NCBI GenBank assembly: GCA_013335095.1
Contig: JAAXWF010000001.1
Location: 214,797 to 278,796, forward strand
Source of the DNA: a candidate division WWE3 bacterium
Lineage (GTDB): Bacteria; Patescibacteriota; 4484-211; GCA-002791395
Direction: 5' to 3'
Length of the DNA stretch: 64,000 bases
Of the stretch, positions 6,558 through 60,213 are shown one piece after another (position 1 is the first letter of the stretch; each line of letters opens with the position of its first letter). The position numbers and the translations under genes are program-made. The notes beneath the pieces are model-generated. The model did no database searches and had not been told where the DNA came from. It saw nothing but the letters and a program-made list of their open reading frames with translations.

Positions 6558-6635
6558 TGGTCGGGGAGGTCGGACTCGAACCGACGGCCTCCAGCACCCC
6601 ATGCTGGCGCGCTAGCCAAACTGCGCCACACCCCG
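6558..6635 (-). tRNA. tRNA-Pro (anticodon GGG)
   Basis: The reverse complement folds as a cloverleaf: CGGGGTG-TG-GCGC..GCGC-G-CCAGC-AUGGGGU-GCUGG-AGGCC-GTCGG-TTCGAGT-CCGAC-CTCCCCG-A-CCA. CCA is encoded. There is one U-U mismatch in the acceptor stem. Confidence 0.85.
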
Positions 6636-15338: not shown

Positions 15339-17159
15339 ATGATAAAAAAAATAACCTTAGTTGTATCGACTTTCTTTTTTATCTTCACAGTTCTATCGAC
15401 AAATACTGCCTTTGGTGATCAACTAGACGATCAATTAAGTGACACACAACAGAAACTGAACGCTGCGGTCGCTGAAAAAAATAAAACACAATCAGAGCTC
15501 AATAGACTGGAAAAGCTTAAACAACAATATACCGGATCACTAAGATCCTTACAAAATACGATTGCCATAACCAATCAACAAATAGACCTTACCAACGAAA
15601 CCATTAAAAACAAGGAGAACGAGATGAATCAAGTAAAAGATGATATTAAAAAATCTGAAGACGATATTAATCACCGTAAAGACCAACTCAAGAATACAAT
15701 ACGGGCTTTTTATATGATTGGACAACCGAACAAATTTGAATCCATCTTGAATCCCCTGGGAAATACAGCCGCAACACAAGGATTTGTGTATCGGATGAAT
15801 GTTATTGCGAACAGTAAAGTACAAATACTCGATCTCAATAATGATTTAGCTAAAATAAATGAGATCAAAAAATCTCTTGAGGAGCTGCAAGCTCAACTTC
15901 AGAAAGATAAAACTGATCTAGAACAAAAAAAGACCGACTTACAACGAAGTATTCAAGCGACACAAGGCAATCTTGCAACGACCTCGTCACAATCCCAAAA
16001 TGTTCAACAATCGTTATTAGGATTAGAAGGGCAAATATCTTCCCTTACTCAAAAACAAAGAGAGATTTTAGCCGCCAAAGCAGCCGCGGCACTAGCATCT
16101 ACAACCGTTGGAAATACGGAAATTAACAAAGCAGCAATCGAAAAGAATGCACCGAAAGACGGCAATGTTTACTTTTCTTTTTGGACATATGGATACCCAC
16201 ACCGTGTGGGACTTAGCCAGTACGGCGCATTAGGCAGGGCGTGGTCTGGACAATCCACGGAGCAAATATTAAAGGCATATTATCAGGGAGTGACCTTAAC
16301 AACATGGGAAGCACCAGCTTCAATAACCATTTCAACAGCGAACGGTAATCAAACCATCCCGTTTGAGGAAGATTACTTAATGGGGATTGGCGAAATGCCC
16401 TCTTGTTGGGGAGATTCCAGTCACAAGGGACTTGAAGCCCTAAAAGCCCAAGCCATAATAGCCCGCACGTATGCGCTCAATTATACAAATAATGGAACTC
16501 AACCCATTTGCACAACTCAATCGTGCCAAGTGTACATAGGTGCAAGCAAAATAAACGGGGCATGTGGAAATTATTGGAAACAAGCGGTTGAAGAAACCAG
16601 AGGACTAGTCCTAACTTCCGCAGGCCAGCTAATCTCTGCCGTGTATGCCTCCACGTCTGGTGGATTTACCTTAAACTCGGAGGATGCAAGTCCGCACTTT
16701 AACTCGTATCGAAGCTATTTGCGTGGTATTGCAGATTTTGATGCTAATGGTAAACCATATGAAGGACCAGATTACGGCGGATCCCCTTGGTATCACAAAG
16801 CCTGGGGTGATCAACCGTGGCTAAGTATATCTCAGGTAGCGGATATGTTTAATGCCGCACTTCTACCCGAAAGCTATAATAACCAACTCAGCACAATCTC
16901 TAAAGAGGACATCGTTAATCAGTTAACACAAAACGGCATTACTCCAATAACTAATTTTAAAGCTCTTGAGATTATCGATCAAAATGGAAACAAAGGAGCA
17001 AACACGGCGCAGGTTGCAAAGGTTCGGGCTTATTTTGGAGAGGGACAAATGGCTGAAGTTACAGGCGCTCGATTTAAATTTGTGTTTAACTTACGATCTC
17101 CTGGAACTGATGCTATTTGGACAACTCGCTTTGATGTGATAACTGCAGCTGAATTATAA
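15339..17159 (+). CDS. Secreted SpoIID/LytB-domain protein with N-terminal coiled coil
   Basis: Signal peptide, then ~250 aa of heptad-rich coiled coil. The SpoIID/LytB-like region covers GYPHRVGLSQYGALGRAW...EALKAQAIIARTYALNY...CTTQSCQVY. Confidence 0.65.
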   Translation: MIKKITLVVSTFFFIFTVLSTNTAFGDQLDDQLSDTQQKLNAAVAEKNKTQSELNRLEKLKQQYTGSLRSLQNTIAITNQQIDLTNETIKNKENEMNQVKDDIKKSEDDINHRKDQLKNTIRAFYMIGQPNKFESILNPLGNTAATQGFVYRMNVIANSKVQILDLNNDLAKINEIKKSLEELQAQLQKDKTDLEQKKTDLQRSIQATQGNLATTSSQSQNVQQSLLGLEGQISSLTQKQREILAAKAAAALASTTVGNTEINKAAIEKNAPKDGNVYFSFWTYGYPHRVGLSQYGALGRAWSGQSTEQILKAYYQGVTLTTWEAPASITISTANGNQTIPFEEDYLMGIGEMPSCWGDSSHKGLEALKAQAIIARTYALNYTNNGTQPICTTQSCQVYIGASKINGACGNYWKQAVEETRGLVLTSAGQLISAVYASTSGGFTLNSEDASPHFNSYRSYLRGIADFDANGKPYEGPDYGGSPWYHKAWGDQPWLSISQVADMFNAALLPESYNNQLSTISKEDIVNQLTQNGITPITNFKALEIIDQNGNKGANTAQVAKVRAYFGEGQMAEVTGARFKFVFNLRSPGTDAIWTTRFDVITAAEL

Positions 17160-19535: not shown

Positions 19536-21269
19536 TTATTCTTGTAATGGACTAATCCATCGTATAAAGGACATAAACATATTACTTGATGCTTCAGTAG
19601 ATGAAGGTTGAATCGCTGCGATAGAAGAGCACGCAGCATTAGTATAATCCATATACGTTGCCGGACAGAGTGTACTACCACTTCTAATAATTTCATATTC
19701 CAAATGGTTGTGTGTAGTATTTCCCGTCAATCCGACAACACCAATATAATCTCCAGAATTAACGGCAAAACGTGTAACTTCGATATCACTTCCAAAGCAT
19801 GGTGAGTCAGAAGGATGAGTAGTAGCCACAGCATCCCCCGGCAATTGGGTCGCTAAATGAGAACTAATAGTACGATATACACCATCTATTCCGATAACGA
19901 TCACATATACACCACGAGATGCATAGGTCGTTGTAGATGTTTCATTAATACATCGATATGCGGTACCTCTTAGGGTGGCAAATATGGGGAAGACACCTTC
20001 TATGTCGACTTTTTGACCACTAGAAACACCGTTAGCACAGTACGTAGCATCAGCTGGACAATGTCCAGGATTATTGTTAGGTGACGAACATCCCGACGTT
20101 ACGGTACGGCTTGTAGATGAATCGTTTGGCCACCCACAAGGAACTGGTGGAAGTAGGGTTGGTGTAGGCGTTGGCGTGTCTGAAATATCAGGATTAATAG
20201 TAGGTTCAGGAATTACGATGGCATTGTATTGCCCCATTTTTCCAAAAGGCATGGGGGGGACTTCTACGTACTGCCCCGTATCGTAATCATAGTAACGGAA
20301 TGACCTAGCATCACCAGAATATGCAGTACCGTCTTTCTGTCCTTTATCTTGGTTGGTAGGTCGACGAGGATATAACGGACTAACCATCGCTGGGGGTACA
20401 ACTTTTGCACAAGTCTTACATTCAATATCTCCATCCGGAATTAACTCCTCACCACGCGGACACGTATTTGCATCAAACCTCACATTTGCATTGGTAACAA
20501 ACCACTCTGGTGGATAACACGTATTCTCCTCACCCACCGGTAATACATAATACTTGCGAGGTGTTGGACCTACATACCCCCAATTATTATTAGGAGTAGG
20601 GGTAACACTGAGTAACGGAGGATCATCATTAAATCCGGTACACGCGACTCGAGTCCAGTCTATTGTAGGAAACGCTGATTGCAGAGTACTCAATGGCCAG
20701 ACTTGTCTCATTGCTGTATACCAATCAACCCCACCAGGATGGTATTCATAGTGCCACCATTCTAGTACTCCATCAGTTGTGTGCTTGGGAATACGATTCC
20801 ATCCTTGAGCTTCAAATAACGCCGTGACATCAATACTCCCCAATGGACCATTTGCTACCACTCTAAACAGCTGCCCCTCAGGAGTAACTGTAAATGCTCC
20901 TGAAGTAGGTAGATTATATAAACTCGTTGTATATAAATCGACAGCACGACCAGTTTTATGCCAAGATCGATTAATAGAACCAGTACCAGCCGGAAGACTG
21001 GCTGGTCGCAACATATCCGAAGTTCTTCCTAGCGCATCAACACCAGTAGCGGCTAATACAGCTTGCCTGATATTTAAAAAACTATCATGCGCATTTGGAA
21101 TTAGCTTAGCCATTGATGCAACAGAATTCTGAACTCCATCGACGGTAACAAGTGGTAGATTGGGGCAACTATCCTGAGCATGGGCTTTAGATATATTATG
21201 TGGTAACTGTTTAGCCAGTACGACAAATAAAATAAATGCAGAAAGTGAGACTATTGTTAATCGTTTCAT
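19536..21269 (-). CDS. Secreted two-domain peptidoglycan hydrolase: N-terminal M15-like carboxypeptidase and C-terminal M23/LytM-like domain
   Basis: Signal peptide. SWHKTGRAVDL fits the M15 SxHxxGxAxD motif. A Pro/Thr linker (PTPTPTLLPPVP) follows. The C-terminus has HCPAD (HxxxD) and VGLTGNTTHNHLEYEI (M23 HxH motif). Confidence 0.55.
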   Translation of the reverse strand: MKRLTIVSLSAFILFVVLAKQLPHNISKAHAQDSCPNLPLVTVDGVQNSVASMAKLIPNAHDSFLNIRQAVLAATGVDALGRTSDMLRPASLPAGTGSINRSWHKTGRAVDLYTTSLYNLPTSGAFTVTPEGQLFRVVANGPLGSIDVTALFEAQGWNRIPKHTTDGVLEWWHYEYHPGGVDWYTAMRQVWPLSTLQSAFPTIDWTRVACTGFNDDPPLLSVTPTPNNNWGYVGPTPRKYYVLPVGEENTCYPPEWFVTNANVRFDANTCPRGEELIPDGDIECKTCAKVVPPAMVSPLYPRRPTNQDKGQKDGTAYSGDARSFRYYDYDTGQYVEVPPMPFGKMGQYNAIVIPEPTINPDISDTPTPTPTLLPPVPCGWPNDSSTSRTVTSGCSSPNNNPGHCPADATYCANGVSSGQKVDIEGVFPIFATLRGTAYRCINETSTTTYASRGVYVIVIGIDGVYRTISSHLATQLPGDAVATTHPSDSPCFGSDIEVTRFAVNSGDYIGVVGLTGNTTHNHLEYEIIRSGSTLCPATYMDYTNAACSSIAAIQPSSTEASSNMFMSFIRWISPLQE

Positions 21270-22237
21270 CTTTTATTTAATAAAATAACTTTACCTTCTG
21301 GACCAGAAAAAATATAGGCCGGCAATAATGTTCTTTTCTCGTTAATTGAGTGAAACAAATAATTATCGGCATAATACGCGGGTGTAATAGAATCCACATG
21401 AATATATCTATTTTCAGGATCTGTTAAATAAATGGCATCTGCAGCGCCATTTTCCATTTTACGACGAGCCTCCCCTATTGAAAGAACATTAGTAAATGAG
21501 TCCTCATTACGCACATTAGGTAAGAATAACGATAGGTTACGAATAGTACCCGTTGAATCTATCATAATAGACGTAGTAATGGGCAAGATTATTGATGCAC
21601 CATTCATTGAATAGGTAATATCACTAATTAATAATGGGCCAGATCCGGTAGCGGAAACCTGTATGTTTCCATCAGGATCTAAAAGCATATAACGAACATT
21701 TACTAAATCTACACTAATAAAGTCTTTTGGTAACTTTACTTTATCTAAAAATGTAGTCAATGCTTGTGATAGCTGTTCTGGAGACGGTTTACCTTCAGCT
21801 AAATTATTAGGACCAAGATTAAATGCTGTTGAAAAATTAATTACTCCCATCTTAGGATCAATTGATAAAACTTTATTATCCTGAGACCAGATGAACTGCT
21901 CACCCTGGTTCGATACTGTCGCTTTATCAGTAAGTCCCAAGGTAAAACCAATTAGCTGCATTGTACTGTTAGTAAACCAACGGCTCTCTGGTAAGGCTAA
22001 TTCAATATCTGCCATACGAGAAACATTCATTTCTTGCCGACCATCAACAAATTCAATATCAACTGGAGAATTACTTAATTCATCTACGAGGGTCGGGCTA
22101 CCGCCTAGTTTTATAACCGATTGAGTTGGTCTACGAGCGAAATATTCAAATAACAATGCGATCCCAAACAATAATACGATCGCAATTATGGACCCAACTA
22201 AAAGAGACAGTTTGTGTTTATTAATAAAATTCATCAT
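21266..22237 (-). CDS. Hypothetical signal-anchored extracellular protein
   Basis: 323 aa with an N-terminal TM anchor (LSLLVGSIIAIVLLFGIALLF). 4-nt overlap with the upstream hydrolase gene. Confidence 0.4.
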   Translation of the reverse strand: MMNFINKHKLSLLVGSIIAIVLLFGIALLFEYFARRPTQSVIKLGGSPTLVDELSNSPVDIEFVDGRQEMNVSRMADIELALPESRWFTNSTMQLIGFTLGLTDKATVSNQGEQFIWSQDNKVLSIDPKMGVINFSTAFNLGPNNLAEGKPSPEQLSQALTTFLDKVKLPKDFISVDLVNVRYMLLDPDGNIQVSATGSGPLLISDITYSMNGASIILPITTSIMIDSTGTIRNLSLFLPNVRNEDSFTNVLSIGEARRKMENGAADAIYLTDPENRYIHVDSITPAYYADNYLFHSINEKRTLLPAYIFSGPEGKVILLNKR

Positions 22238-22270: not shown

Positions 22271-24007
22271 TCAATCACCAGTTGGTACCGCCGTCGGTCT
22301 TGGGGTACTCGTCGGAGCACCGGGAATTGGGGTCATGGTCGGAGTTGGCGGAGGTGTGATAAAGCCAGCATTTACATATACAGGCCCACGAACTTCATCA
22401 TTACGTTTTCGATTTAGTGAGAAGAAGTAACCTGGTAACGCGTTAGTAAAGTAGTCTTCACCTCGACATACTTCAATAAAAGGATTGTCGCGACAATCAA
22501 AATCATCTAGTCCGATACCTAATGTAGATAAGTATCTATTAGTAATAATTTCATACTGAATATGACGACGGCCAGGAGTCCCACTATCTCCCATTAAACC
22601 TAACTGCTGACCACGAGCAACATATGGTCCATAACCATAAGGGAGCTTAGTCATTCTCTCAGTTGAAGAACTTGAACCGCTGACTAAGTTAGACAATGAT
22701 ACAAAATAATCAGGTCCATAATAAGTACGCCTATAATGGACATCATTCAACATTAAGGTATATGGCATCAAATGTGTATACCGAGTAATCATGTCCGGAA
22801 CATTATCTCGGTTTAAATCAGATTCAATTTGAATCATCCATCCTTTTTCGCGAATGTACTGAGGTGCCGGTCCTGCATATGTTACAAAACCAGCATGCGT
22901 ACTATACACATGCATTGTATTTGCTAGGCTATTATTTGGCTTAACATCAATACCTGGATGAACCCAGCCTTCACGAATAGTCGGCAAGATTATTGTTGGC
23001 ACTCGATACGGAACATCAGTCGGACCTGCACCAATAGGTGTCGGAGATCCGCTAGCACTGGGTGTATAGTTTGGACAACTATTATGAGCATATAAAGCTG
23101 CGACGATATTAGCTAGAACTTGTTTGTGCCGCTGACAAATATATCCGTATGCACAATCTTGTGTTTTTAGAGCCCTAACTAAGTCGCCGGTGCTAACTGC
23201 CTGACTATTGAATGCTGATGCAATCGCCGGATCTTTACCAATTATCATGGTAAAGTATTGGCGTCGATCTGGATCAGCACCAGTACGAGAAATAGCCTCG
23301 CCTCCAGTATTTGCAATATCATCAAATGTAGCCGTATTAATTTGAGATCTATACGTACCTAACCCACCAGCTTGCCCAGAATTGAGATAGTTCCAGGCAT
23401 CCCGTTGAGCTCGTGGACTATTATTAACAATCTCATTCATCTTGGATCGCAACGTTGCAACACTTGAACCATAAAAACTTATGAATACATCTTTCCAGTG
23501 TTTACGATTCTCACCAGCCTGGTATCCACCAATTTGGTAATTTCGATAAGAACAGAATACTGATACTTGGCTTAAAGATCGATTATCATTACAGTTCACT
23601 AGATACGGATCAGGCCTCCCGCTTGTAGTATTTGAAAATGGATATCCATTCTCAAACCAAAGCCATGCGGTATTTAAATAGCGAATAATAGTAAATCCAT
23701 GACTTGCTGCATAGGCTTCACCTGATAACATTTGATTGACATCCCACTGGGTGTTTGCATCAGATTGGATTTTGGCACGAAAGGCTAAATAACCGGTGGA
23801 GCCCGTAGCTTCAGGTTGAGGCAAACCCATTGCTGCATAATCAGGTTCGGCAGGGCAGGCCTGTGCACTAACCGAAACAGGTTGGTGAAAATAAAAGGAC
23901 AGTATGAAGACAGATAAAGAACCGATGAAAACTCCGATACTAAGTCCAAGATAGTTCAAGCGAAATTTTCCGAGTTTTAAATTAGAATTAAGCATCTTTC
24001 TTAGCAT
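22271..24007 (-). CDS. Secreted LytM/M23-domain protein, possibly catalytically degenerate
   Basis: Signal peptide. GWVHPGIDV (HxGxD), then ...LGLMGDSGTPGRRHIQYEI, where the second His of the M23 HxH motif is Gln. C-terminal Pro/Thr-rich tail. Confidence 0.5.
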   Translation of the reverse strand: MLRKMLNSNLKLGKFRLNYLGLSIGVFIGSLSVFILSFYFHQPVSVSAQACPAEPDYAAMGLPQPEATGSTGYLAFRAKIQSDANTQWDVNQMLSGEAYAASHGFTIIRYLNTAWLWFENGYPFSNTTSGRPDPYLVNCNDNRSLSQVSVFCSYRNYQIGGYQAGENRKHWKDVFISFYGSSVATLRSKMNEIVNNSPRAQRDAWNYLNSGQAGGLGTYRSQINTATFDDIANTGGEAISRTGADPDRRQYFTMIIGKDPAIASAFNSQAVSTGDLVRALKTQDCAYGYICQRHKQVLANIVAALYAHNSCPNYTPSASGSPTPIGAGPTDVPYRVPTIILPTIREGWVHPGIDVKPNNSLANTMHVYSTHAGFVTYAGPAPQYIREKGWMIQIESDLNRDNVPDMITRYTHLMPYTLMLNDVHYRRTYYGPDYFVSLSNLVSGSSSSTERMTKLPYGYGPYVARGQQLGLMGDSGTPGRRHIQYEIITNRYLSTLGIGLDDFDCRDNPFIEVCRGEDYFTNALPGYFFSLNRKRNDEVRGPVYVNAGFITPPPTPTMTPIPGAPTSTPRPTAVPTGD

Positions 24008-24019
24008 ACGTTTAGTTGA

Positions 24020-26272
24020 CTAGTTTTTACAATAACGATATTCACCGTAATCTTGTGATGGGTTACCGCGATATGGACCTTGAGAATCAGCTTCGCCTGT
24101 GTATCCCCACTCCTGGCTAATTTGTCCGGACACGGGCCACCCATATGGCCTTGCTTGATCATCTGAAAGACGACCACCAATTGGTATCGATGCGAGGATT
24201 ACTGAACGCGATGCACGATCTTCCTCTAGCCCTCCAAATTCAGCCGATACTTCGATTGGCCCGATTACTGAATTATTTGAGGAAGCGTTATAACCGCAAC
24301 CACCAAATGCAGTAACATCTCGATACAGATAGAATAAAGGATTTGGTGTGGTGTCAGGCTTCTTCGGTAAAATTAAGACTCGTGGATCAGTACCTAAACA
24401 ACGTCCATCTTCAGTACGATTACCCGATAGCTGATCATATTTATCACACACAAAATTGTAGTCGCGAGGAACCAACCCACCTAATCCAGATATTGATGGT
24501 GGTGCGATATCGATACAAGGAGTAAAACAACCCATGGCGCTCGCAGCTGGTGGATTTACTGTTTGGAACAGTCGCTTTATAGGTGCTGGAATAATCATTC
24601 GATCTTCAAGCCAAGACATAATGTCTGAGTTTTTATCTTCAGGTGCCTTCACTTCGCAAGTCGGTCCAGAACAATCAGCATATGGAATTAAATCGCCTTC
24701 TCCATCACCATTTAAATCAGGACATTGGCTTAACGAACCACGTCCCTCACTCTGCGCTCTTTCATAGCACCATGGTGGAGGACAACCAGGTACAGTATAT
24801 CCGCCTTGGTCACAAGTAAATCCGCCCGCATGAGTCTGGTCAGCAATAGTAATTCCATAATACTGGGCACATTCTTGTATTGTGGGTTGGTGATCTGGTC
24901 GGTATTGACATCCCCATTCACCACCATGTAACTTAACCCCCTGACATTGACACGGAACCGCTGGTTGTGAAAGTTTATACTCCCCGAGTGTTTGTGAGGA
25001 TGTAATCGAATCTGTAGTATCCGGTAACACAGTAATCTCTGAAGAAGACGGCTGTAACGGCAACTCTTTTATCTCTCCAGCCTGTAAGGTGAATGGTCCA
25101 AACACAATTTGTGGACTGGTAACATCTGGACGTGTCTCTAAATACATAGGTACCCCATTTATCGTTCGTATCAGAATCGACGGCCAATCAGGGTTAGCAG
25201 AACCATATAATCCGATTTGTTCGGTTAAATATTCATCCAGGGAAGAACCATGTATATAATTCACTGGATTTAGAGGATTGTCTGTAGCACCTCCACGTGC
25301 AACCAAAAAATCAACGTTGTGCGCAAAGGCGTCTTCACCTCGTGCATCAAATGTTTTTGTATTAAGACGAACTAAAATATTATCGATTTCTAGATCACTT
25401 GTATTTTCAGCCTTGACGTATAACGAAATTGCATTAGATGCGTATACCTCTGTATGAAATTCAACGTATGCTTCGTCTTCACATGATCCAGTAAAACAAT
25501 CACGCACGCACTTATAAGAATATCCATCACGCCGAATAAACTTATTTGAGATAGAATTCGCCAAACCAAAGGTATTTGGACCTTGCGCCGCATGGCTAGT
25601 AACAGGAACAGCTCCCCAGTCAGCCATCACGGGAGATTGGCCACACCAACCAGCAATAACATGACGTATCCCCGAAACATGACAACCACTCTCAGGACAA
25701 ATCTCCCAATGCGGTGGTTCATCAGTTGGGGTCGGTACGGTAAAGGCATTAGCTGTTTCTCCAATCAGACCATTTAAACTAGTCGGAGTATTCAGCTCAG
25801 TACTCGCAAGAGGTGAATTTTGTTCTTGTATTCCACTACGGACTCGTCCTGGACCACATTGAGGACAAGAAATAAGACTTTCATGTAATTCTTTCAGCGG
25901 ATCTTCGACAGTTGGGACAAAGGCTTCACCACCAAGGGATACGGTATCCCACTCTAAAGATAACTTAACTTGTTTTATCATATTTGGAGCAGGAGGAACT
26001 CCCGGAGGAACCTCACCAGTAGGTACAGGAGCATCTGAGGGCACATTAGCAGGACCTTGAATTACAGCACCTCCAGGAAATGCACCAAAGAAGCCATCAA
26101 AGATAGAATCAAGACGATCTCGAAATCCACTGAAGATACCACTATTATTTCCGCTACCATCAAATATTCCACCCGCATGAGAAATACTAACGGGTCTAAC
26201 GATACAAAGTAAGGTAATCAAAAACAAAAACAGCAGTCGAGTAAGACTAGAAAAAACAGTTTGTTTATTCAT
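24020..26272 (-). CDS. Large secreted cysteine-rich protein (750 aa), function unknown
   Basis: Signal peptide, a Gly/Pro-rich N-region and many paired Cys (CPQCGPG, CQCQGVK...GCQYRP, PGCPPPWCY, CSGPTCEV). The extreme C-terminus carries YGWPVSGQISQEWGYTG, which resembles the opening strand of an M23 domain, but the protein ends before any HxGxD. Confidence 0.5.
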   Translation of the reverse strand: MNKQTVFSSLTRLLFLFLITLLCIVRPVSISHAGGIFDGSGNNSGIFSGFRDRLDSIFDGFFGAFPGGAVIQGPANVPSDAPVPTGEVPPGVPPAPNMIKQVKLSLEWDTVSLGGEAFVPTVEDPLKELHESLISCPQCGPGRVRSGIQEQNSPLASTELNTPTSLNGLIGETANAFTVPTPTDEPPHWEICPESGCHVSGIRHVIAGWCGQSPVMADWGAVPVTSHAAQGPNTFGLANSISNKFIRRDGYSYKCVRDCFTGSCEDEAYVEFHTEVYASNAISLYVKAENTSDLEIDNILVRLNTKTFDARGEDAFAHNVDFLVARGGATDNPLNPVNYIHGSSLDEYLTEQIGLYGSANPDWPSILIRTINGVPMYLETRPDVTSPQIVFGPFTLQAGEIKELPLQPSSSEITVLPDTTDSITSSQTLGEYKLSQPAVPCQCQGVKLHGGEWGCQYRPDHQPTIQECAQYYGITIADQTHAGGFTCDQGGYTVPGCPPPWCYERAQSEGRGSLSQCPDLNGDGEGDLIPYADCSGPTCEVKAPEDKNSDIMSWLEDRMIIPAPIKRLFQTVNPPAASAMGCFTPCIDIAPPSISGLGGLVPRDYNFVCDKYDQLSGNRTEDGRCLGTDPRVLILPKKPDTTPNPLFYLYRDVTAFGGCGYNASSNNSVIGPIEVSAEFGGLEEDRASRSVILASIPIGGRLSDDQARPYGWPVSGQISQEWGYTGEADSQGPYRGNPSQDYGEYRYCKN

Positions 26273-26347: not shown

Positions 26348-26770
26348 CTAAGCATTATACTTTGCTTGATTAGAAAGGTAATCCCTTAATAATTCCTTTG
26401 CCGATTCAGAATGTCCCAGATTATGAGATAGAGATAAGCCATCATGTCGCATATTTTTCTCGGCCTGAAATGTTGTTAAGAATTCAGAAAATAATATAAT
26501 ATCTACTCCAAATTGTTTTTTAATTTTTGTAAAGACTTTTTGAAAATTATCAGGTAATTTTTTCTCACCCATATCTCCGACAAGAAATGCGGTAACATCA
26601 AATTCTTTCACGATGTTCGATAAATATTCAAAAAAGAGGAATTCATTCTTGTACTGATGCGATGATAAACTTTCAATCCCATACGCAGGACGATAAATAG
26701 CCAGGCCAATATATCGAAGACCCAAATCCACACCAATAATTACCTGTTCATTTTTATGTTTGACTGTCAT
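26348..26770 (-). CDS. YqgF/RuvX-like RNase H-fold nuclease (putative Holliday-junction resolvase-like)
   Basis: VIIGVDLGLRYIGLAIY plus downstream acidic residues fit YqgF. About 140 aa. Confidence 0.55.
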   Translation of the reverse strand: MTVKHKNEQVIIGVDLGLRYIGLAIYRPAYGIESLSSHQYKNEFLFFEYLSNIVKEFDVTAFLVGDMGEKKLPDNFQKVFTKIKKQFGVDIILFSEFLTTFQAEKNMRHDGLSLSHNLGHSESAKELLRDYLSNQAKYNA

Positions 26771-28274
26771 TTCCACTACGCACCTCAACCTTCACCTCAA
26801 GTCTATCTGAAATATGCGGCATAGATCGGAATGCATCGGGGATATATGGCCAGAGATTCATATCATAACCATCAACATGCTCCATCGACTTTAATATCGA
26901 CTCAGCTTGTGCAGGACGTATATTTAATAATTGGTCATGGATCTGATTTAGATTGAGATCAGGAACGACCATTGTTGCTAACTTTGCCTTTACGGTTATA
27001 GCCGAATTTACTTGACCTTCAATTTTTTCTAACGCAAGAGAATCTTCATTGTCTGTTACGACGAATCCATCTGGTATATTATCACGGGCGACTTTACTCA
27101 ACAGTTCTTTTACATCGCTTTCAGAAAATGCAACTACACTAGCAGAAATTTTTAACGTCAGAGCAAAATTTGAAGCCTCTGCTCCTACTGGATGATCATA
27201 GTCAGCAAATTTAGTATCAAATGAAATCATATCATCAGAAAATGTCTCACCTTCTTTTAATTCAGATTTTACTTTTGTCGGTGCATCAGCCTGTAATTTA
27301 CTCTTCAATTGCTTAAGAGCATTGGATTGATCGTCGGCCGATACAACAGTTACCTCACGAGTCAATCCTCCCGTTAATGCTTGTGGATTCGTCGCTCGAA
27401 CTGATCCAAGACCTTTTACCTTAAACTCGCCAACCGTAAAATCAGAATTAGCAGAAAGATTATATGTTTCACCAATATCAAGGGCTCCAATAGCAAGAGG
27501 CGAAGATTCACCCGGATCGAGGACCATTTGACCATCCTTCTCACTAATAGTCACCTCATCAACACGAACGGATTTATTTAGTACATATGACAAAGTCCCG
27601 CTTTTAAGAATAGTTCCAACAGGTAACTCAAGTGCAGAGTCACGGAAATTTTGGATAACAACCTGACCCGTCGCTTTTTCTCCAACCTGCTTTTTTCCAG
27701 AAGATGGGAATGTTTCACTTTGTTCAATTGTTGTTTCGACCTTTCGTCCTGGAATTTTCGAATTTGACTCATCAATTGTTTGAATATCTGGGTCAACCGT
27801 AACAATAGAACTTTTTTCAATAACTCGCTGATTAACGTAGAGCGTTACAACACCACGAGGTAGATAGTATAAGACAAATCCTGCCGTGGCTAATCCGGCT
27901 AGCAACAGAATAATCAAAAACGTAGCAATTAATCTTTTTGGAGTAAGGACTGATTGATGATGTTTATGTTTTTCATTCTTTGCAATCGGAGTATCAGCTT
28001 GTTTTAGCTCGTTCTTGTCATCGAGTACGCTCTCAGTAGATTCTTCGGAGGGCTCACTATTCTCCTGCACACTCATTGGTTGTCCACCTTCATGAACTAT
28101 ATGTATTTTTTTTCCTGTACGTTGGGCTACTTTCTCTAAAAGCGATAAATTTGAATGATACGACTTGAATACAGATCCCTCTGGCAAAAACAATTCGATA
28201 TCTTCACCAGAATACTGCTTCATCCCGTGAACTACTTCATATAATCTAATATGGTCATCTAATATTATTTTCAT
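26754..28274 (-). CDS. Bitopic membrane protein with a large extracytoplasmic domain (PilN/PilO-like partner?)
   Basis: 506 aa: a ~115-aa cytoplasmic N-region, one TM (LIATFLIILLLAGLATAGFVLYYL), then a ~370-aa outside domain. Translationally coupled to the actin-like ATPase upstream. Confidence 0.4.
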   Translation of the reverse strand: MKIILDDHIRLYEVVHGMKQYSGEDIELFLPEGSVFKSYHSNLSLLEKVAQRTGKKIHIVHEGGQPMSVQENSEPSEESTESVLDDKNELKQADTPIAKNEKHKHHQSVLTPKRLIATFLIILLLAGLATAGFVLYYLPRGVVTLYVNQRVIEKSSIVTVDPDIQTIDESNSKIPGRKVETTIEQSETFPSSGKKQVGEKATGQVVIQNFRDSALELPVGTILKSGTLSYVLNKSVRVDEVTISEKDGQMVLDPGESSPLAIGALDIGETYNLSANSDFTVGEFKVKGLGSVRATNPQALTGGLTREVTVVSADDQSNALKQLKSKLQADAPTKVKSELKEGETFSDDMISFDTKFADYDHPVGAEASNFALTLKISASVVAFSESDVKELLSKVARDNIPDGFVVTDNEDSLALEKIEGQVNSAITVKAKLATMVVPDLNLNQIHDQLLNIRPAQAESILKSMEHVDGYDMNLWPYIPDAFRSMPHISDRLEVKVEVRSGNDSQT

Positions 28275-28276
28275 AG

Positions 28277-29407
28277 TTATAATTCAACCCTGGTTAACGC
28301 TTCAATATTTGGTAACTTACCCGAGATTGTTTCTATCTTAGGGAAATTAACAAAATGTAAAAACTTAGTCCAAGGATACGCTGATAAACGCGATTTAATC
28401 TCACTTAGATGGCGCGATTCACCTGAAATAATAAGCCGCGGTGGGAGGTCATTTACTTTGAATTCTGAGAGCGCCGACGCGATGCCTTCTACCCAGATTT
28501 CGAGCGCAGTCTCTATCGAATGTTTTGTCATTCGTCCACGATCTTGGTCTAAATGTCCTTGGGCATATTCTAATTTCAAGTTCTCAGCATTATCATATGA
28601 GGTATTAAGATCTTGCTGTATTTGCCAGGTAATATCATTTCCTCCAATAAATAAGACTTCGTTTCCAACAACTTTCCCGCTCACAACAACAACGACCTCA
28701 GTCGAGTCGCCACCTACGTCTAAAAGAATAAAATCATTTCCGTCTTTTGACAAATCGACAGCGGCTTGCACCGATGTTTCAATAAGTGACACGATTTCAA
28801 GATTAAACTGATCAATAAGCGCATTGATCGTGTTTAGTTTAGTTTGGTCAATAAAATAATGTAGCACAGCTACCTCAATTTCGTTACCGGCTAGACCAAT
28901 GGGAGTCGAAACACGGGCCCCATCGACTTCAAAACCAGTAAAACTTGTTTCAACTCGAGTTAGTTCAGAACCACACTTTGCCTGAAGCTCTTGTAATGCT
29001 TTGTTCAATGTTTTTTCTTCTATTTTTTGGGCAATGACTTCAAACTCTTTCTCGGTTAATATCTCGGTCGGATGGCTCCGTTTGGTCCTGACTCGAAGGC
29101 CTCGAACATGAATCATCCCACCTGATAAACCTAATACAACCTGATTAGATTGCGAATCTGATTTTAGAGTTGCTTCATCTAATGCTAGCTTAAGGGAATC
29201 GGTTACGGCATCTAAATTTGTAATTTGCCCTGCATACATACTTTTTCGGCCCTGTATCTGGGATCCCATCCCAATAATCCTTGACTCGTGTTGTTCATCT
29301 GCAGGTTCAAATACAGCCACACGAATAGCAGAGCTACCTAAATCGATAGCGGTGTAGTATGGGGTCTTCTTTTGTTTAAAAATATTACCTAAAAGTTTTC
29401 CCTTCAT
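28277..29407 (-). CDS. Actin-like ATPase of the FtsA/PilM family
   Basis: YTAIDLGSSAIRVAVFEP (phosphate-1), ILLDVGGDSTEVVVV (phosphate-2) and a C-terminal adenosine motif. No ftsZ follows, so PilM-like is favoured. Confidence 0.6.
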   Translation of the reverse strand: MKGKLLGNIFKQKKTPYYTAIDLGSSAIRVAVFEPADEQHESRIIGMGSQIQGRKSMYAGQITNLDAVTDSLKLALDEATLKSDSQSNQVVLGLSGGMIHVRGLRVRTKRSHPTEILTEKEFEVIAQKIEEKTLNKALQELQAKCGSELTRVETSFTGFEVDGARVSTPIGLAGNEIEVAVLHYFIDQTKLNTINALIDQFNLEIVSLIETSVQAAVDLSKDGNDFILLDVGGDSTEVVVVVSGKVVGNEVLFIGGNDITWQIQQDLNTSYDNAENLKLEYAQGHLDQDRGRMTKHSIETALEIWVEGIASALSEFKVNDLPPRLIISGESRHLSEIKSRLSAYPWTKFLHFVNFPKIETISGKLPNIEALTRVEL

Positions 29408-50571: not shown

Positions 50572-50645
50572 TGGAGGCCTGGAGGGGAATCGAACCCCTG
50601 GTGAGGGTTTTGCAGACCCTGGCCTTACCACTTGGCTACCAGGCC
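50572..50645 (-). tRNA. tRNA-Cys (anticodon GCA)
   Basis: The reverse complement reads GGCCTGG-TA-GCCAAGTGGTAAGGC-C-AGGGT-CUGCAAA-ACCCT-CACC-AGGGG-TTCGATT-CCCCT-CCAGGCC-T-CCA. Discriminator is U73 and CCA is encoded. Confidence 0.85.
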
Positions 50646-54663: not shown

Positions 54664-54984
54664 GGGGATGCTCAGCATCGACAAAAGCATTTTTTACAAC
54701 TAGCAAGCCGAGTTTTGATTATCAACTCGCTAAACAAATAATCGCAAACAATAAATGGCGTTAATAATAGTTACGCTCCAGTCGCCTACGCTATTGCGTA
54801 AAGCCCTGGCATCGGCCTTTTCTTACTACTCCTGACAAGAGAGTTAACCGGTGTAATATTAGTCAGGAATCTTTATCATTGCACTTTTATCTTTATCCCG
54901 ATGGCTAAAATCGGGAAGAAAGCTTGTAAACTAGCTGTACACAAATCTTATTGGACGAGGGTGCAAATCCCTCCATCTCCACCA
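54664..54984 (+). ncRNA. ssrA: tmRNA (ssrA)
   Basis: The 5' GGGGAUGCUCAGCAUCGAC pairs with the 3' ...GGAC-GAGGG-UGCAAAU-CCCUC-CAUCUCC-A-CCA, which is collinear with E. coli tmRNA ends, including the G3-U70 Ala identity pair. It lies immediately downstream of smpB. An internal short ORF ends at TAA 54799-54801. Confidence 0.8.
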
Positions 54985-56725: not shown

Positions 56726-58531
56726 ATGAATACCACACATATTCGCAATTTTTGTATTATCGCTCATATTGATCATGGAAAATCGACCTTGGCCGACCGC
56801 CTGCTTCAACGCACGGGCACTGTTTCTGACAGGGAGATGCAGGATCAATTCTTGGATAAGCTCGATTTAGAGAGGGAGAGGGGCATCACCATCAAGTTAC
56901 AAGCAGTGCGGATGGAGTGGAAAGACGCGATTAACGAGCAATACGTTTTAAACCTCATCGATACCCCAGGACATATCGATTTTTCGTATGAAGTAAACCG
57001 CGCCCTGGCTGCATGTGAAGGGGCACTGCTATTAGTCGATGCCAGCCAAGGAATACAAGCCCAAACGTTGGCGAACTACTTTAAAGCCGTTGAGGCAAAA
57101 CTTAAAATAATTCCCGTTGTAAACAAGATCGATTTACCTTCGGCAAGGCCAGAAGACGTTGCACTAGAGATTATTGAAACATTTGGTTTTGATCATGAGG
57201 ACATTATCTTTGCGAGCGGTAAAACGGGTGCTGGTGTCGATGAATTGCTCGAAGCAATAATTAAAAAGATACCCGCTCCCCTAGAATCGCAAAATAATAT
57301 ACCAAAAGCGTTAGTATTTGATAGTTATTATGATAGCCATCGCGGAGTGGTAGCAATGATTCGCGTAATTGAAGGAGAGTTGCATCATCAACCGATGTAT
57401 CTGGTTAATTCCCAACAAGATTTCAATCCAATAGAGATTGGTTATATGACGTCATCTCAGGTAAAAACAAAACAAATATTAACAGGAGAAGTTGGATATA
57501 TTGCGACCGGGTTAAAAGACATTGAGCGCGTACGTGTTGGTGCAACAATTACCCATGAAGAAAATTGGAATTCGGTGACACCTTTACCTGGATATCAAGA
57601 GCCAAAGCCGATGGTTTTTGCGAATCTGTTTCCAGTCGATGCCGATAAATTTAAGGAGCTACGGGAGTCGGTGCTTAAATATAAACTGACCGATGCTGCG
57701 TTCGTATATGAACCAATTCATTCCCAGGTATTAGGAGCTGGCTTTCGGTGTGGGTTTTTAGGGCTCTTACACTTAGAGGTTGTTCGGGAACGTATTGAGC
57801 AGGAATACAATATCGAAACGCAAGTAACGTCTCCTAATGTGTTGTATGAAATTGAGTTTCGCGATGGCAGAAAAGAAGCGCTCCAATCACCCGAAGATAT
57901 GCCCGATCCGAGTACGATCAGTAATATTTTCGAACCATGGTGTAAGGTAAAGATTTATACCCAAAAAGATTACATTGGTGATTTGATGAAGATATCCGAC
58001 CAACATCGTGGAGTGTTTATCGATATGAGCTACTTAGCCAGCGATAAAAGCGGATCTCGCGTTACCCTTGAGTATGATATGCCTCTTGCCGAAGTGATAA
58101 CGAACTTCTTTGATCAGGTTAAATCGGTTTCGGCTGGTTATGCATCGCTTGATTATGAGCTCACTGACTATCGTTTAGTCGATTTAGTACGCCTCGACTT
58201 GCTTTTAAACGGTGAAAGCCATGAAGCATTGGCACGATTGGTTGTCCGATCCCAGGCTCATGAGATCGGAAATAAATTGGTCAGTACACTCAAAGAGACG
58301 TTACCGCGACAACAGTTTGCCGTACCGATTCAGGCAGCCATAGGAGGAAAGATTATTGCCCGCGAAACATTATCGGCGGTCCGTAAAGATGTGACAGGAT
58401 ATTTATATGGTGGAGACCGAACCCGTAAAGATAAACTACTTAAAAAACAAGCCGAAGGTAAAAAACGTATGCAAGCTATGGGATCGGTTACGATTCCTCA
58501 CGATGTGTATAAACGTATAGTATCTCTTTAA
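56726..58531 (+). CDS. lepA: Elongation factor 4 (LepA)
   Basis: IIAHIDHGKSTLADRLL, DTPGH, NKID and the LepA-specific C-terminal domain. Confidence 0.95.
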   Translation: MNTTHIRNFCIIAHIDHGKSTLADRLLQRTGTVSDREMQDQFLDKLDLERERGITIKLQAVRMEWKDAINEQYVLNLIDTPGHIDFSYEVNRALAACEGALLLVDASQGIQAQTLANYFKAVEAKLKIIPVVNKIDLPSARPEDVALEIIETFGFDHEDIIFASGKTGAGVDELLEAIIKKIPAPLESQNNIPKALVFDSYYDSHRGVVAMIRVIEGELHHQPMYLVNSQQDFNPIEIGYMTSSQVKTKQILTGEVGYIATGLKDIERVRVGATITHEENWNSVTPLPGYQEPKPMVFANLFPVDADKFKELRESVLKYKLTDAAFVYEPIHSQVLGAGFRCGFLGLLHLEVVRERIEQEYNIETQVTSPNVLYEIEFRDGRKEALQSPEDMPDPSTISNIFEPWCKVKIYTQKDYIGDLMKISDQHRGVFIDMSYLASDKSGSRVTLEYDMPLAEVITNFFDQVKSVSAGYASLDYELTDYRLVDLVRLDLLLNGESHEALARLVVRSQAHEIGNKLVSTLKETLPRQQFAVPIQAAIGGKIIARETLSAVRKDVTGYLYGGDRTRKDKLLKKQAEGKKRMQAMGSVTIPHDVYKRIVSL

Positions 58532-58535
58532 AAAA

Positions 58536-58572
58536 TCCCGAAGCGATAAGTCGCCCCGGGATCCTTTCAGTT
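58536..58572. terminator. Nested-palindrome hairpin after lepA (UCCCG..GCGA-UAAG-UCGC..CGGGA), probably a bidirectional terminator
   Basis: Read directly. Lies between the convergent lepA and the GC-rich ORF. Confidence 0.4.
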
Positions 58573-58583
58573 TGCGAAATTTA

Positions 58584-59087
58584 CTATTCCTCTGGCGGAG
58601 AGGGTAGCATGTCGAGATCGGACCGCATCAGTCCGAGTACGATGTCTCGCTCCATCTGGCTGGCCCAACCGACCATGATAAGGAAGGCCAACCGCAGTCG
58701 GTAACGATCCAACGACTCAAGCGGATACAGATCAAGCAAGTGCTCGATCCGGTCGATCGGCCACTCTTCCCTGGAGGCAACCCCCTGAATTAGAAGTTGC
58801 ACCAGCAGGTACGAGACACCCAGTTGATCAGCGATCAACTGGCGGCGAAGACGACCGTGCGTAACCTCGAAGATATTGCGTACCCAAAGCGAGGCAGTGC
58901 GCCGTTCAGCATACTCAGGCGTACCCATCAGGGCCGCCCAACGCCGCACGACCTCGGTCATGCGGGATTCAAACTCCCGCTCCTCCTCGGTTTTCTCCGA
59001 AGCATTGATTTCGTCAATCTCTTGGTCGGTCAGACCGAGGTCTCGAAGTGCCTGCCGATCAGGGTCTTCCGCTGGTACCTGGGACAT
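58584..59087 (-). CDS. Hypothetical protein (GC-rich island)
   Basis: High-GC ORF. The start is uncertain (MSQVPAEDPDRQALRDLGL... is preferred). No family recognised. Confidence 0.4.
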   Translation of the reverse strand: MSQVPAEDPDRQALRDLGLTDQEIDEINASEKTEEEREFESRMTEVVRRWAALMGTPEYAERRTASLWVRNIFEVTHGRLRRQLIADQLGVSYLLVQLLIQGVASREEWPIDRIEHLLDLYPLESLDRYRLRLAFLIMVGWASQMERDIVLGLMRSDLDMLPSPPEE

Positions 59088-59200
59088 ACAGCCCCTCCTT
59101 TGCATAGATTCCACCAAACTTAGCCCTTATATTTTACCACACCACTATAGGATGGTATAATTTAAATACAGTGTCTAAGGGGACTATCAAGGAGGATGCA

Positions 59201-59638
59201 ATGCATCCAAAGGACCTGCTCGGGTTGCTGGCAATGATATCGGTGGTGGTCGTAGTTTCGTGGGGCCGTTTTTCTAGCATCCCAACCGAAACCAACGTTG
59301 CCACAATCGATTGTCCGTCCGCAATGGAGCTCCCTGTGGGGAGCATGTGTGAGTCGAAAGGCGTACAGGCGGGCTCTGGCAGCCTAATCCAACTCGGTGG
59401 CTGGAAGTACGCCCAAGCCACATTCTTCGGCGGTGCCGCGCTTCGTCAAGCCGACAACATCCAGATAAAGGATACGGCTGGCAAAGTTACCGGGTCCGAC
59501 CGGCTGCTGAATGGCGTCTATACCATTCAGATCGGCAAGGGTGAGGCCCGTTTGGGTATCGACGATCCGATCACAACGGATCCCAAAGAGGTGAGCGTAC
59601 AGCTTACCCTCTTCCGCCCAACCGCCCCGGCCCCGTGA
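59201..59638 (+). CDS. Small secreted or anchored hypothetical protein (GC-rich island)
   Basis: AGGAGG lies 5 nt before ATG 59201. The N-terminal hydrophobic segment is LLGLLAMISVVVVVSW. A strong terminator follows. Confidence 0.45.
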   Translation: MHPKDLLGLLAMISVVVVVSWGRFSSIPTETNVATIDCPSAMELPVGSMCESKGVQAGSGSLIQLGGWKYAQATFFGGAALRQADNIQIKDTAGKVTGSDRLLNGVYTIQIGKGEARLGIDDPITTDPKEVSVQLTLFRPTAPAP

Positions 59639-59644
59639 TAATGT

Positions 59645-59682
59645 CCCCTGGCGCGCACCACGCGCGTCAGGGGATTTTTTTT
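59645..59682 (+). terminator. Rho-independent terminator (CCCCUGGCGCGC-ACCA-CGCGCGUCAGGGG, then U8)
   Basis: Read directly, immediately after the stop at 59638. Confidence 0.65.
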
Positions 59683-59739
59683 CACCTCATATGATATGAT
59701 ACGACTATCGGCCGAATAGAGTTGCAAGGAGGTCACTTC

Positions 59740-60213
59740 ATGACCGAACCCCGGATACTTCCGTTTGAAGTAATTTTCTGCCCCCAATGTGGGCAAGAAA
59801 CCCCCAAAGTGGGGAATAAGTGCATGATGTGCGGGGCCGGGTTAGTAAAGTTCAAGTCAACCCCACCAACGCCTGAACTGGAATGGCTGACGGTCGCACC
59901 CGATGCCGATACCACCCTAATCTCATTGGAGTTATCCAAAAAGATTAGCCTAACCACGCCACCGATTCCAATCGAGCTAATCATCCAGGCCCTAGACCAG
60001 TTGGCAAAAATCAATCCCCAACACGTCCAGGTCCTCATTCGATGGTATGGACTGGATGGAAAACCACCCCGAACCTTGACCGAAATCGCCGCATCAGTTG
60101 GAAAAAAAATCGGCTATGCCAGCCGACTTCGGACACAAGGGACACGCAAAATTAGGCACCCAGAATATGGGCTGCAGCAGGCGATCAACGAGCTAGAAGG
60201 AGAAAAAGAATAA
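59740..60213 (+). CDS. Zinc-ribbon protein with a C-terminal sigma-70 region-4-like HTH (GC-rich island)
   Basis: AGGAGG lies 7 nt before the ATG. The Zn ribbon reads CPQCG...CMMCG. The C-terminal LTEIAASVGKKIGYASRLRTQGTRKIRH resembles sigma70 region 4.2. Confidence 0.45.
   Translation: MTEPRILPFEVIFCPQCGQETPKVGNKCMMCGAGLVKFKSTPPTPELEWLTVAPDADTTLISLELSKKISLTTPPIPIELIIQALDQLAKINPQHVQVLIRWYGLDGKPPRTLTEIAASVGKKIGYASRLRTQGTRKIRHPEYGLQQAINELEGEKE

Follow-up and report, generated by a model that had tools for sequence, protein, structure and literature searches.

Here we report a comparative analysis of two adjacent genes, named G1 and G2, in a 64,000-nucleotide (nt) stretch of DNA from a candidate division WWE3 bacterium (assembly GCA_013335095.1, contig JAAXWF010000001.1, positions 214,797 to 278,796), referred to below as the window. 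By sequence comparison, one LytM/M23 domain is divided between G1 and G2, and the C-terminal tail of G1 probably docks onto the core of G2. The cut lies between the first strand of the domain with its loop and the HxxxD motif, and the two halves are placed on adjacent co-directional genes. The tail was shown by sequence comparison to be homologous to a cis element of fused relatives, which carry both parts in a single chain, and a split G1 and a strand-less G2 co-occur, adjacent to each other, at the seven split loci identified. In the literature, we found no description of the G1 family or of a split LytM domain; what is new here is the unusual distribution of a familiar LytM fold over two genes and its attachment to a module without known relatives.

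Cuts inside a single small fold, unlike those between domains, are rare in nature and usually reveal an obligate protein-protein interaction. If the proposed reading is true, the cut makes a very common cell-wall peptidase fold an assembly device, and the ~690-residue Cys-rich module of G1, which has no detectable relatives, becomes a scaffold into which hydrolase domains can be inserted. For WWE3 (Katanobacteria), an uncultured lineage of the Candidate Phyla Radiation (CPR) whose cell-wall biology is, to our knowledge, essentially unknown, it would also offer a starting point for understanding the function of a conserved envelope cluster of four genes that adjoins an ftsA-like gene. Both halves are short and well defined, so that the reading is directly testable with a tail peptide and the G2 core.

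The two genes and the junction between them are as follows (amino acids are abbreviated aa):
24020..26272, minus strand: G1, open reading frame for a predicted secreted Cys-rich protein of 750 aa
24008..24022, minus strand: TAG stop and 12-nt spacer between G1 and the ATG of G2
22271..24007, minus strand: G2, 578 aa, with an N-terminal hydrophobic anchor or signal, ~290 unassigned aa and a C-terminal LytM core

Conserved C-terminal tail of G1

The C-terminal part of G1 contains two features of interest:
24023..24208, minus strand: G1 tail (aa 689-750), assigned as the first strand and long loop of a LytM/M23 domain, up to the invariant C748
24095..24139, minus strand: WPVSGQISQEWGYTG motif (aa 712-726), with W712, P713, G716, I718, G723 and T725 invariant in a 13-sequence alignment

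A first-pass annotation of this region had described G1 as a Cys-rich secreted protein ending in an orphan motif that resembles the first strand of an M23 domain. The 750-aa open reading frame, all of the Cys motifs that it quoted and WPVSGQISQEWGYTG are indeed present in the sequence, but the motif is not an orphan, as it is invariant in all homologues found. The N-terminal strand and loop expected of an M23/LytM domain are found in G1 with WPVSGQISQEWG at aa 712, and the canonical N-terminal edge of LytM domains reads alike in Escherichia coli NlpD (WRWPTEGKVIETFG) and EnvC (FWPVRGPTLHRYG). The pattern WP..G.[IVL]...[WFYH]G has a single match in the six-frame translation of the window (nt 24139, minus strand), with a chance expectation of ~0.005 and 0 matches in 200 shuffles. 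G1 ends 22 residues past the strand motif and 2 residues past C748. The HxxxD motif (no H.G.D match) and the HxH motif of M23/LytM are absent from G1, which also lacks a Pfam M23 match, bearing out the earlier statement that the protein stops before any catalytic motif. The Pfam and InterPro models of M23 begin only at HxxxD and omit the preceding loop that lines the groove (PMC9662197).

The tail is retained by all 12 homologues of the first search and by the members found afterwards. Its consensus in all family members is ARP[YF]GWPxxGxIxxxWGxTGxAxxxGxYRxxPxxxYxxYxxC, with G711, W712, P713, G716, I718, G723, T725, A728 and C748 unchanged throughout the first alignment. Mean pairwise identity of the tail (aa 689-748) is 0.66 in the 14 split-type sequences, including G1, and 0.63 in the fused ones, compared with 0.26-0.52 for most other segments of G1; aa 650-688 are conserved to a similar degree (0.70). 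The alignments thus show the tail to be under strong purifying selection. The annotation had regarded this segment as either a remnant of domain shuffling or a docking segment for the adjacent protein. The comparative data favour shuffling and docking, but the tail is not a decaying remnant, since a remnant would have decayed below the identity that is seen here.

Relatives that carry strand and core together

Twelve homologues of G1 were identified among 5.8 billion proteins, and only 25 of 1.84 billion cluster representatives matched in a profile search at E<1e-30, indicating that the G1 family is small. Homologous proteins are denoted below by P numbers and their loci by L numbers. Roughly half of the representatives are fused proteins (P0011-13, P0016-19 and P0022-27), in which the tail and the core belong to a single chain. 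The comparison of orthologues that had been proposed as a check therefore yielded the same C-terminus throughout, followed in cis by an M23/LytM core in about half of the proteins. In the fused chains, the tail is followed by 10-25 residues and then by HPGIDI ... YTTHAGFVTFAG ... VQVESDVxxDNxPD ... TRYxHL ... GDSGSPGxxxLxYEI, so that the motif string of the core reads HPGID..THAGFVTFAG..QVESDV..TRYxHL..GDSGSPG..HxH. The fused cores of P0011 (29.1 bits) and P0016 (34.2 bits) reach the Pfam M23 threshold. In hhalign, the fused core matches the LytM domains of NlpD, EnvC and MepM from E. coli at a probability of 97% (E 1e-10), and that of P0011 is 38% identical to G2 residues 348-546 (E 7e-36).

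In P0059, P0065, P0066 and P0072, too, the same strand precedes a core of this kind within a single chain. A Pfam scan of P0059 and P0066 revealed an Amidase_2 N-terminus and CBM60 repeats, and these comparisons show that the LytM subfamily serves as a module in other predicted cell-wall proteins of CPR bacteria. The core of this group is degenerate, with NPNIDI replacing HPGIDI. The distant relatives P0062, P0067 and P0073 likewise have strand and core in cis, and the two of them that were scanned, P0062 and P0073, score above the Pfam M23 cut-off. All three groups share invariant D, P, W, P, G and G residues in the strand, a conservation equal to the best of the core, and the distance from strand to HxxxD is ~45-60 aa in P0059/P0066 and P0062/P0073. 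Since the strand is present in proteins without the G1 block, always upstream of a LytM core, it belongs to the LytM unit. The earlier proposal that the tail resembles the first strand of M23 is thus substantiated by the fused relatives and by the group-wide conservation of the strand. As judged from these alignments, we conclude that the tail truly represents the N-terminal strand and loop of a LytM subfamily, in which an unusually long segment of 45-60 aa leads to HxxxD. In a word-indexed database, the profile of the strand-plus-core alignment retrieved only 5 proteins.

The tail could instead be a regulatory or targeting peptide that occupies or gates the groove of G2, keeping the LytM domain inactive up to the moment at which the two proteins meet or separate, or a processing tag, rather than a structural strand. 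Groove-occupying N-terminal segments commonly keep M23 enzymes latent, and the active groove is lined by the loop on the N-terminal side of HxxxD (PMC9662197). The motif, however, matches the canonical N-terminal strand of NlpD and EnvC and is unlike an occluding propeptide, and in the fused relatives it stands in cis on the normal N-terminal side of the core. We therefore consider a purely regulatory role of the tail improbable.

Strand-less LytM core of G2

Three features were assigned within the C-terminal part of G2:
22325..23002, minus strand: LytM/M23 core (aa 336-561), without a first strand of its own
22946..22960, minus strand: HPGID, the HxxxD motif (aa 350-354)
22556..22564, minus strand: H-I-Q at the HxH position (aa 482-484)

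The gene following G1 had been credited with a complete LytM domain in the first-pass annotation. G2 does carry the matching LytM part, but this part is incomplete: it lacks the first strand, and its HxH position reads H-I-Q, as it does in every G2 examined. HxxxD is retained, together with the conserved His ~30 residues before HxH (TRYTHL). The second His of HxH is a zinc ligand in canonical M23 enzymes (PMC9662197). In the fused members, the HxH position is variable (QLH, HLH, QTQ, QLD, KVR, HLQ and KLR). The match of G2 to Pfam M23 scores 25.1 bits, under the cut-off of 28.7, and is partial (profile positions 57-90 of 96); homology of G2 to M23 is nevertheless supported by the 97% hhalign probability and the fold search described below. 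The cores of G2 proteins from other loci are 51-59% identical to that of the window. None of the G2 proteins of the seven split loci carries a WPxxGxI strand. In three of the G2 proteins (P0082, P0083 and P0084), the signal peptide is followed directly by QG[YW]LHPGIDI, so that the mature proteins begin at this motif and zero residues are left for a first strand of their own.

Within the window, G1 and G2 share a reading frame and are separated by TAG and four codons (S-T-K-R), and a readthrough product would comprise 1333 aa. This arrangement, which is specific to the window locus, is what would be expected if a frameshift or nonsense mutation, or an error of sequencing or assembly, had truncated a fused G1-LytM gene. 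Such an artefact or pseudogene is very improbable, since G2 comes with a separate start, a separate signal or anchor and ~290 additional aa ahead of the core, both halves are highly conserved, and the genes overlap or lie in different frames at other loci. The same C-terminal end, 1-5 residues past the conserved Cys, recurs in P0006, P0008, P0014, P0020 and P0021 from independent assemblies, which argues that the G1 stop is genuine and that the frameshift near the end of G1 suspected in the first-pass annotation is not needed. Frameshift and readthrough were accordingly rejected, and the shared frame at the window locus is probably due to chance.

Split and fused loci

Seven loci came from a scan of 185,579 species genomes and five from JGI metagenomes, all of them labelled as WWE3, 'Saccharibacteria' or unclassified, or lying on unlabelled metagenome contigs. 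The conserved gene order is AlaRS, FtsA-like, ~505-aa membrane protein, RuvX, G1, G2, G3 (~325 aa), G4 and beta-propeller. In seven independent split loci (the window, L001, L002, L004, L011, L012 and L016), a core-less G1 is followed by a G2 with a strand-less core, with a spacing of 12 nt in the window and an overlap or 2-10 nt at the others. In five fused loci (L013, L014, L015, L021 and L022), no G2 is present. The gene that follows the fused G1 encodes 313-345 aa, about the size of G3, and gives a BLAST match to the G3 of the window only in L015, where it is weak (E 7e-7). Strand-less cores were found only downstream of a split G1. The fused state is probably ancestral for this domain, since unrelated proteins combine both parts in a single polypeptide, and the split lineage would have arisen when a stop and a start, together with a new N-terminal region, were inserted between the loop and HxxxD.

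Structural models and arguments against docking

P0011, a natural fusion, was modelled at full length with AlphaFold2 from a 35-row alignment, with the following values of the predicted local distance difference test (pLDDT):
P0011 residues 110-380: beta-rich domain, confident, mostly pLDDT 85-95
P0011 residues 400-490: Cys-rich part, moderate confidence
P0011 residues 616-699: strand and loop, pLDDT <50
P0011 residues 700-780: M23 core, pLDDT 75-85

A Foldseek search with a predicted structure had been suggested earlier as a route to a known fold; with the P0011 model, it gave no significant match in PDB or BFVD, the only hits being non-significant beta-sandwich look-alikes (arrestin, mu-homology and CBM2). 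The second model was an artificial single chain, in which G1 residues 686-750 were joined to G2 residues 323-562 (37-row alignment). It reached a mean pLDDT of 65.9 and a predicted template modelling score (pTM) of 0.68, corresponding to moderate confidence, with pLDDT of 67-79 for the strand and <50 for the linker of G2 that precedes its core. When compared with PDB, the tail-plus-core model gave 41 matches at E<=1e-3, all of which are M23/LytM structures, with a target TM-score of up to 0.66; they include lysostaphin, Csd1/Csd2, StM23, the LytM domain of EnvC and DipM. As modelled, the artificial fusion thus adopts the beta-sheet fold of M23. The Foldseek alignments fall into two classes, of which one spans ~144 columns, from HPGID to just past HxH, and the other spans 211-223 columns on targets of 130-143 residues; as deduced from the column counts, the latter alignments must begin near the strand.

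Several points weigh against docking of the tail onto G2. The overlay of the strand on the canonical first strand is deduced from alignment lengths, and the model itself, as an artificial chain whose alignment contains natural fusions, cannot show docking between separate chains. The local hhalign alignment leaves out the strand, and in global mode a segment just before HPGID was favoured. An hhalign comparison of the tails alone with a three-sequence profile of E. coli LytM domains was not significant (P 0.29), the cut of NlpD and the MAFFT alignment of this profile being imperfect; the homology of the tail was therefore rested on the fused relatives and not on this small profile. The split and fused forms make up two clades, and hence the perfect co-occurrence of split G1 and G2 reflects perhaps a single evolutionary event.

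The remaining points suggest a different role for the tail, as an integral piece of a C-terminal subdomain of G1 (aa ~580-750) held by a C659-C748 disulfide and kept for the folding of G1 after loss of the core, with G2 acting independently and no strand complementation taking place. Both C659 and C748 are invariant in 13 of the 13 aligned sequences, which suggests that the tail may be pinned to G1's own C-terminal block, and the segment preceding the tail (aa 650-688) matches it in conservation. The strand is of low confidence in the model of the natural fusion. In L020, P0020 is followed by G2 (P0082), but the paralogue P0005 comes after the beta-propeller gene, is followed by a G3-like gene and has no adjacent G2. 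These observations are offset by three others: the strand is invariant in proteins without the G1 block (P0059, P0066 and P0072), G2 cores never hold a strand of their own, some of them starting at HPGID right behind the signal peptide, and strand-less cores were found exclusively where a split G1 precedes them. We thus regard confinement of the tail to G1 as rather unlikely and favour its docking onto the G2 core.

The L020 locus (metagenome contig Ga0214472_10007367, 27-9385) encodes two split-type G1 paralogues, P0020 and P0005. P0005 has an odd ~85-aa extension past the conserved Cys, which is missing from its relative P0006.

Domain organization of the G1 family

G1 is identical (100% over 750 aa) to the NCBI hypothetical protein HGA91_01275 of a candidate division WWE3 bacterium, whose record is free of annotation and gives neither function nor domain. 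Upstream of the tail, the following segments were distinguished:
26174..26272, minus strand: putative Sec signal peptide (aa 1-33, MNKQTVFSSLTRLLFLFLITLLCIVRPVSISHA|GG), recognized by inspection from a positive n-region, a LLFLFLITLLCIV core and an SHA|GG site
26048..26173, minus strand: Gly/Phe-rich segment with IF-x-G repeats (aa 34-75), from the family alignment
25043..25975, minus strand: beta-rich conserved domain (aa ~100-410) with invariant GWCG, GPN, NKxIRRDGYxxC, YxEFQT and SN
24713..24955, minus strand: Cys-rich segment (aa ~440-520; CQCQG, GCQY, GCPPPWCY)
24209..24535, minus strand: conserved C-terminal block (aa ~580-688; PRDYNFVCD ... RDVTxxGGCGYxASSNNSVIGP ... AEYGG), including the invariant C659

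The signal peptide corresponds to an N-terminal helix (residues 14-32) in the P0011 model. The IF-x-G segment (GGIFDG..GIFSGF..SIFDGFFGAFPGGAVI) follows directly after the signal peptide and is found family-wide, as well as in the distant P0062 and P0067; it is predicted to be disordered, with pLDDT <50 over the equivalent region of P0011. Of the 25 Cys residues in G1, 22 are kept in at least 10 of the 13 aligned homologues, and the Cys motifs are CPQCG (aa 136), CQCQG (aa 441), GCQY (aa 454), GCPPPWCY (aa 496) and CSGPTCE (aa 534). Searches with G1 against Pfam, NCBIfam, PHROG and PDB sequences gave zero matches, and the family and fold searches matched the N-terminal ~690 residues to no known fold, in agreement with the first-pass view that the rest of G1 has no recognizable family. 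The disulfide-rich fold proposed there is plausible, given the conserved Cys pattern with which it is compatible, although no fold could be assigned. G1 is a predicted secreted, Cys-rich, mostly beta protein of an otherwise unknown family confined to WWE3-like CPR bacteria.

Whole domains are inserted or added at fixed points in the G1 homologues P0002-P0004, P0009, P0010, P0020, P0021 and P0027. The insertion point of CBM60 is after the Gly/Phe segment and that of VanY inside the beta domain; the Cys-rich segment is swapped for a glycoside hydrolase, which was Glyco_hydro_cc/GH5-like in P0010, the sole one scanned; and an SLT-like 'WLEESGAS' domain, common to many other proteins (P0030-P0081), is appended after the tail. 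These modules (CBM60, VanY, glycoside hydrolase and SLT-like), together with the M23-like domain of G4, suggest a modular extracellular assembly for the processing of cell walls or polysaccharides.

Proposed mechanism and comparison with known systems

The last ~45 residues of G1 are the N-terminal strand (PYGWPxxGxIxxxWG) and the long loop of a special LytM subfamily, closed by the invariant Cys, and G2 carries the remainder of the domain, from HPGID to the HxH position, without the first strand. In the proposed mechanism, the two proteins would be exported separately via Sec, after which the G1 tail may insert into the G2 core as the missing strand, a docking step that we infer, thus rebuilding the LytM fold. 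The rebuilt fold would tie to G2 both G1 and the hydrolase and carbohydrate-binding modules that G1 bears in other species. The reconstituted domain would more likely serve as an adaptor that binds protein or peptidoglycan than as an active endopeptidase, since Gln takes the place of the zinc-ligand His of HxH in every G2; like EnvC, NlpD and Csd2, the G2 domain may be a binding adaptor rather than an active peptidase. The cluster from G1 to G4, beside the ftsA-like gene, could then represent an extracellular assembly for cell-wall remodelling.

More speculatively, the split LytM fold, rebuilt extracellularly by strand complementation, could act as a dockerin/cohesin-like connector of a modular hydrolase complex in CPR bacteria, a possibility that we hold tentatively. 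The tail of G1-type scaffolds would fit into the strand-less core of a G2 located near the membrane, and the two G1 paralogues that share one G2 in L020 would fit interchangeable cargo.

The closest known system is the peptidase family M23/LytM (PF01551), which includes LytM, lysostaphin, MepM, EnvC and NlpD. The tail of G1 has the WPxxGxIxxx[FW]G signature of this family, the core of G2 aligns to LytM domains, and the tail-plus-core model matches M23/LytM structures only. In contrast to the canonical family, the fold is here divided over two polypeptides, a loop of ~45-60 aa leads from the strand to HxxxD, compared with ~10-20 aa in canonical examples, G1 alone is without catalytic motifs, and G2 has H-I-Q instead of HxH.

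The degenerate LytM factors and heterodimers (EnvC, NlpD, DipM, and Csd2 with Csd1) are similar in that zinc-ligand positions are lost or variable in the proteins studied here (QLH, QTQ, QLD, KVR and HIQ) and in that the genes adjoin those for cell division and the cell wall; EnvC, DipM and Csd1/Csd2 are moreover among the top structural matches of the tail-plus-core model. Degenerate M23 folds are hubs of protein interaction (PMC9662197). Unlike G1 and G2, these factors have a complete fold in one chain and pair via surfaces or grooves, not by sharing a strand, and no Amidase_3 partner was seen in the cluster of the window.

The tail and core can also be compared, by way of working only, with the donor-strand complementation of chaperone-usher pilins, in that the partner would supply the strand that an incomplete beta fold lacks, and with cohesin-dockerin assembly, in that variable enzyme cargo would be held on an anchor protein through a short C-terminal module that is conserved. 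The folds and lineages are unrelated to those described here, for which the interaction is a proposed one.

Other genes of the cluster and of the window

Two further genes follow G2 in the cluster:
21266..22237, minus strand: G3, membrane-anchored protein of 323 aa, next in the cluster at split loci, with a G3-like gene in the corresponding place at fused loci
19536..21269, minus strand: G4, secreted protein of 577 aa with a second M23-like domain at its C-terminus (NHLEYEI)

The second M23-like domain is common to the G4 family, in which the N-terminal parts are S8 or other; it reads N-H-L-E-Y-E-I in the window, compared with H-L-H in orthologues. An assignment of the G4 N-terminus to LAS/VanY-type zinc peptidases, which its SWHKTGRAVD ... 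EWWHYEY motifs recall, was not borne out by Pfam or by phmmer searches of PDB. RuvX and G1 are preceded by an FtsA/PilM-like protein of the actin fold and, after it, a membrane protein of 506 aa without a family (26754-28274 and 28277-29407, both on the minus strand). The order of the FtsA-like and membrane protein genes is kept in those split loci for which the upstream flank was captured.

The window is otherwise an ordinary chromosomal stretch, with genes for EF-G, EF-Tu, AlaRS, the FtsA-like protein and RuvX, as well as RNA genes:
54664-54984, plus strand: tmRNA (88.7 bits)
50575-50645, minus strand: tRNA
6561-6635, minus strand: tRNA

Near the cluster, on the opposite strand, a 606-aa cell-wall lytic protein (15339-17159, plus strand) combines a SpoIID domain (E 3e-16) with a coiled-coil-like N-terminus. 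The 2-kb bin at 58001-60000 has a G+C content of 0.52, compared with ~0.41 elsewhere, with no Rfam match in the bin.

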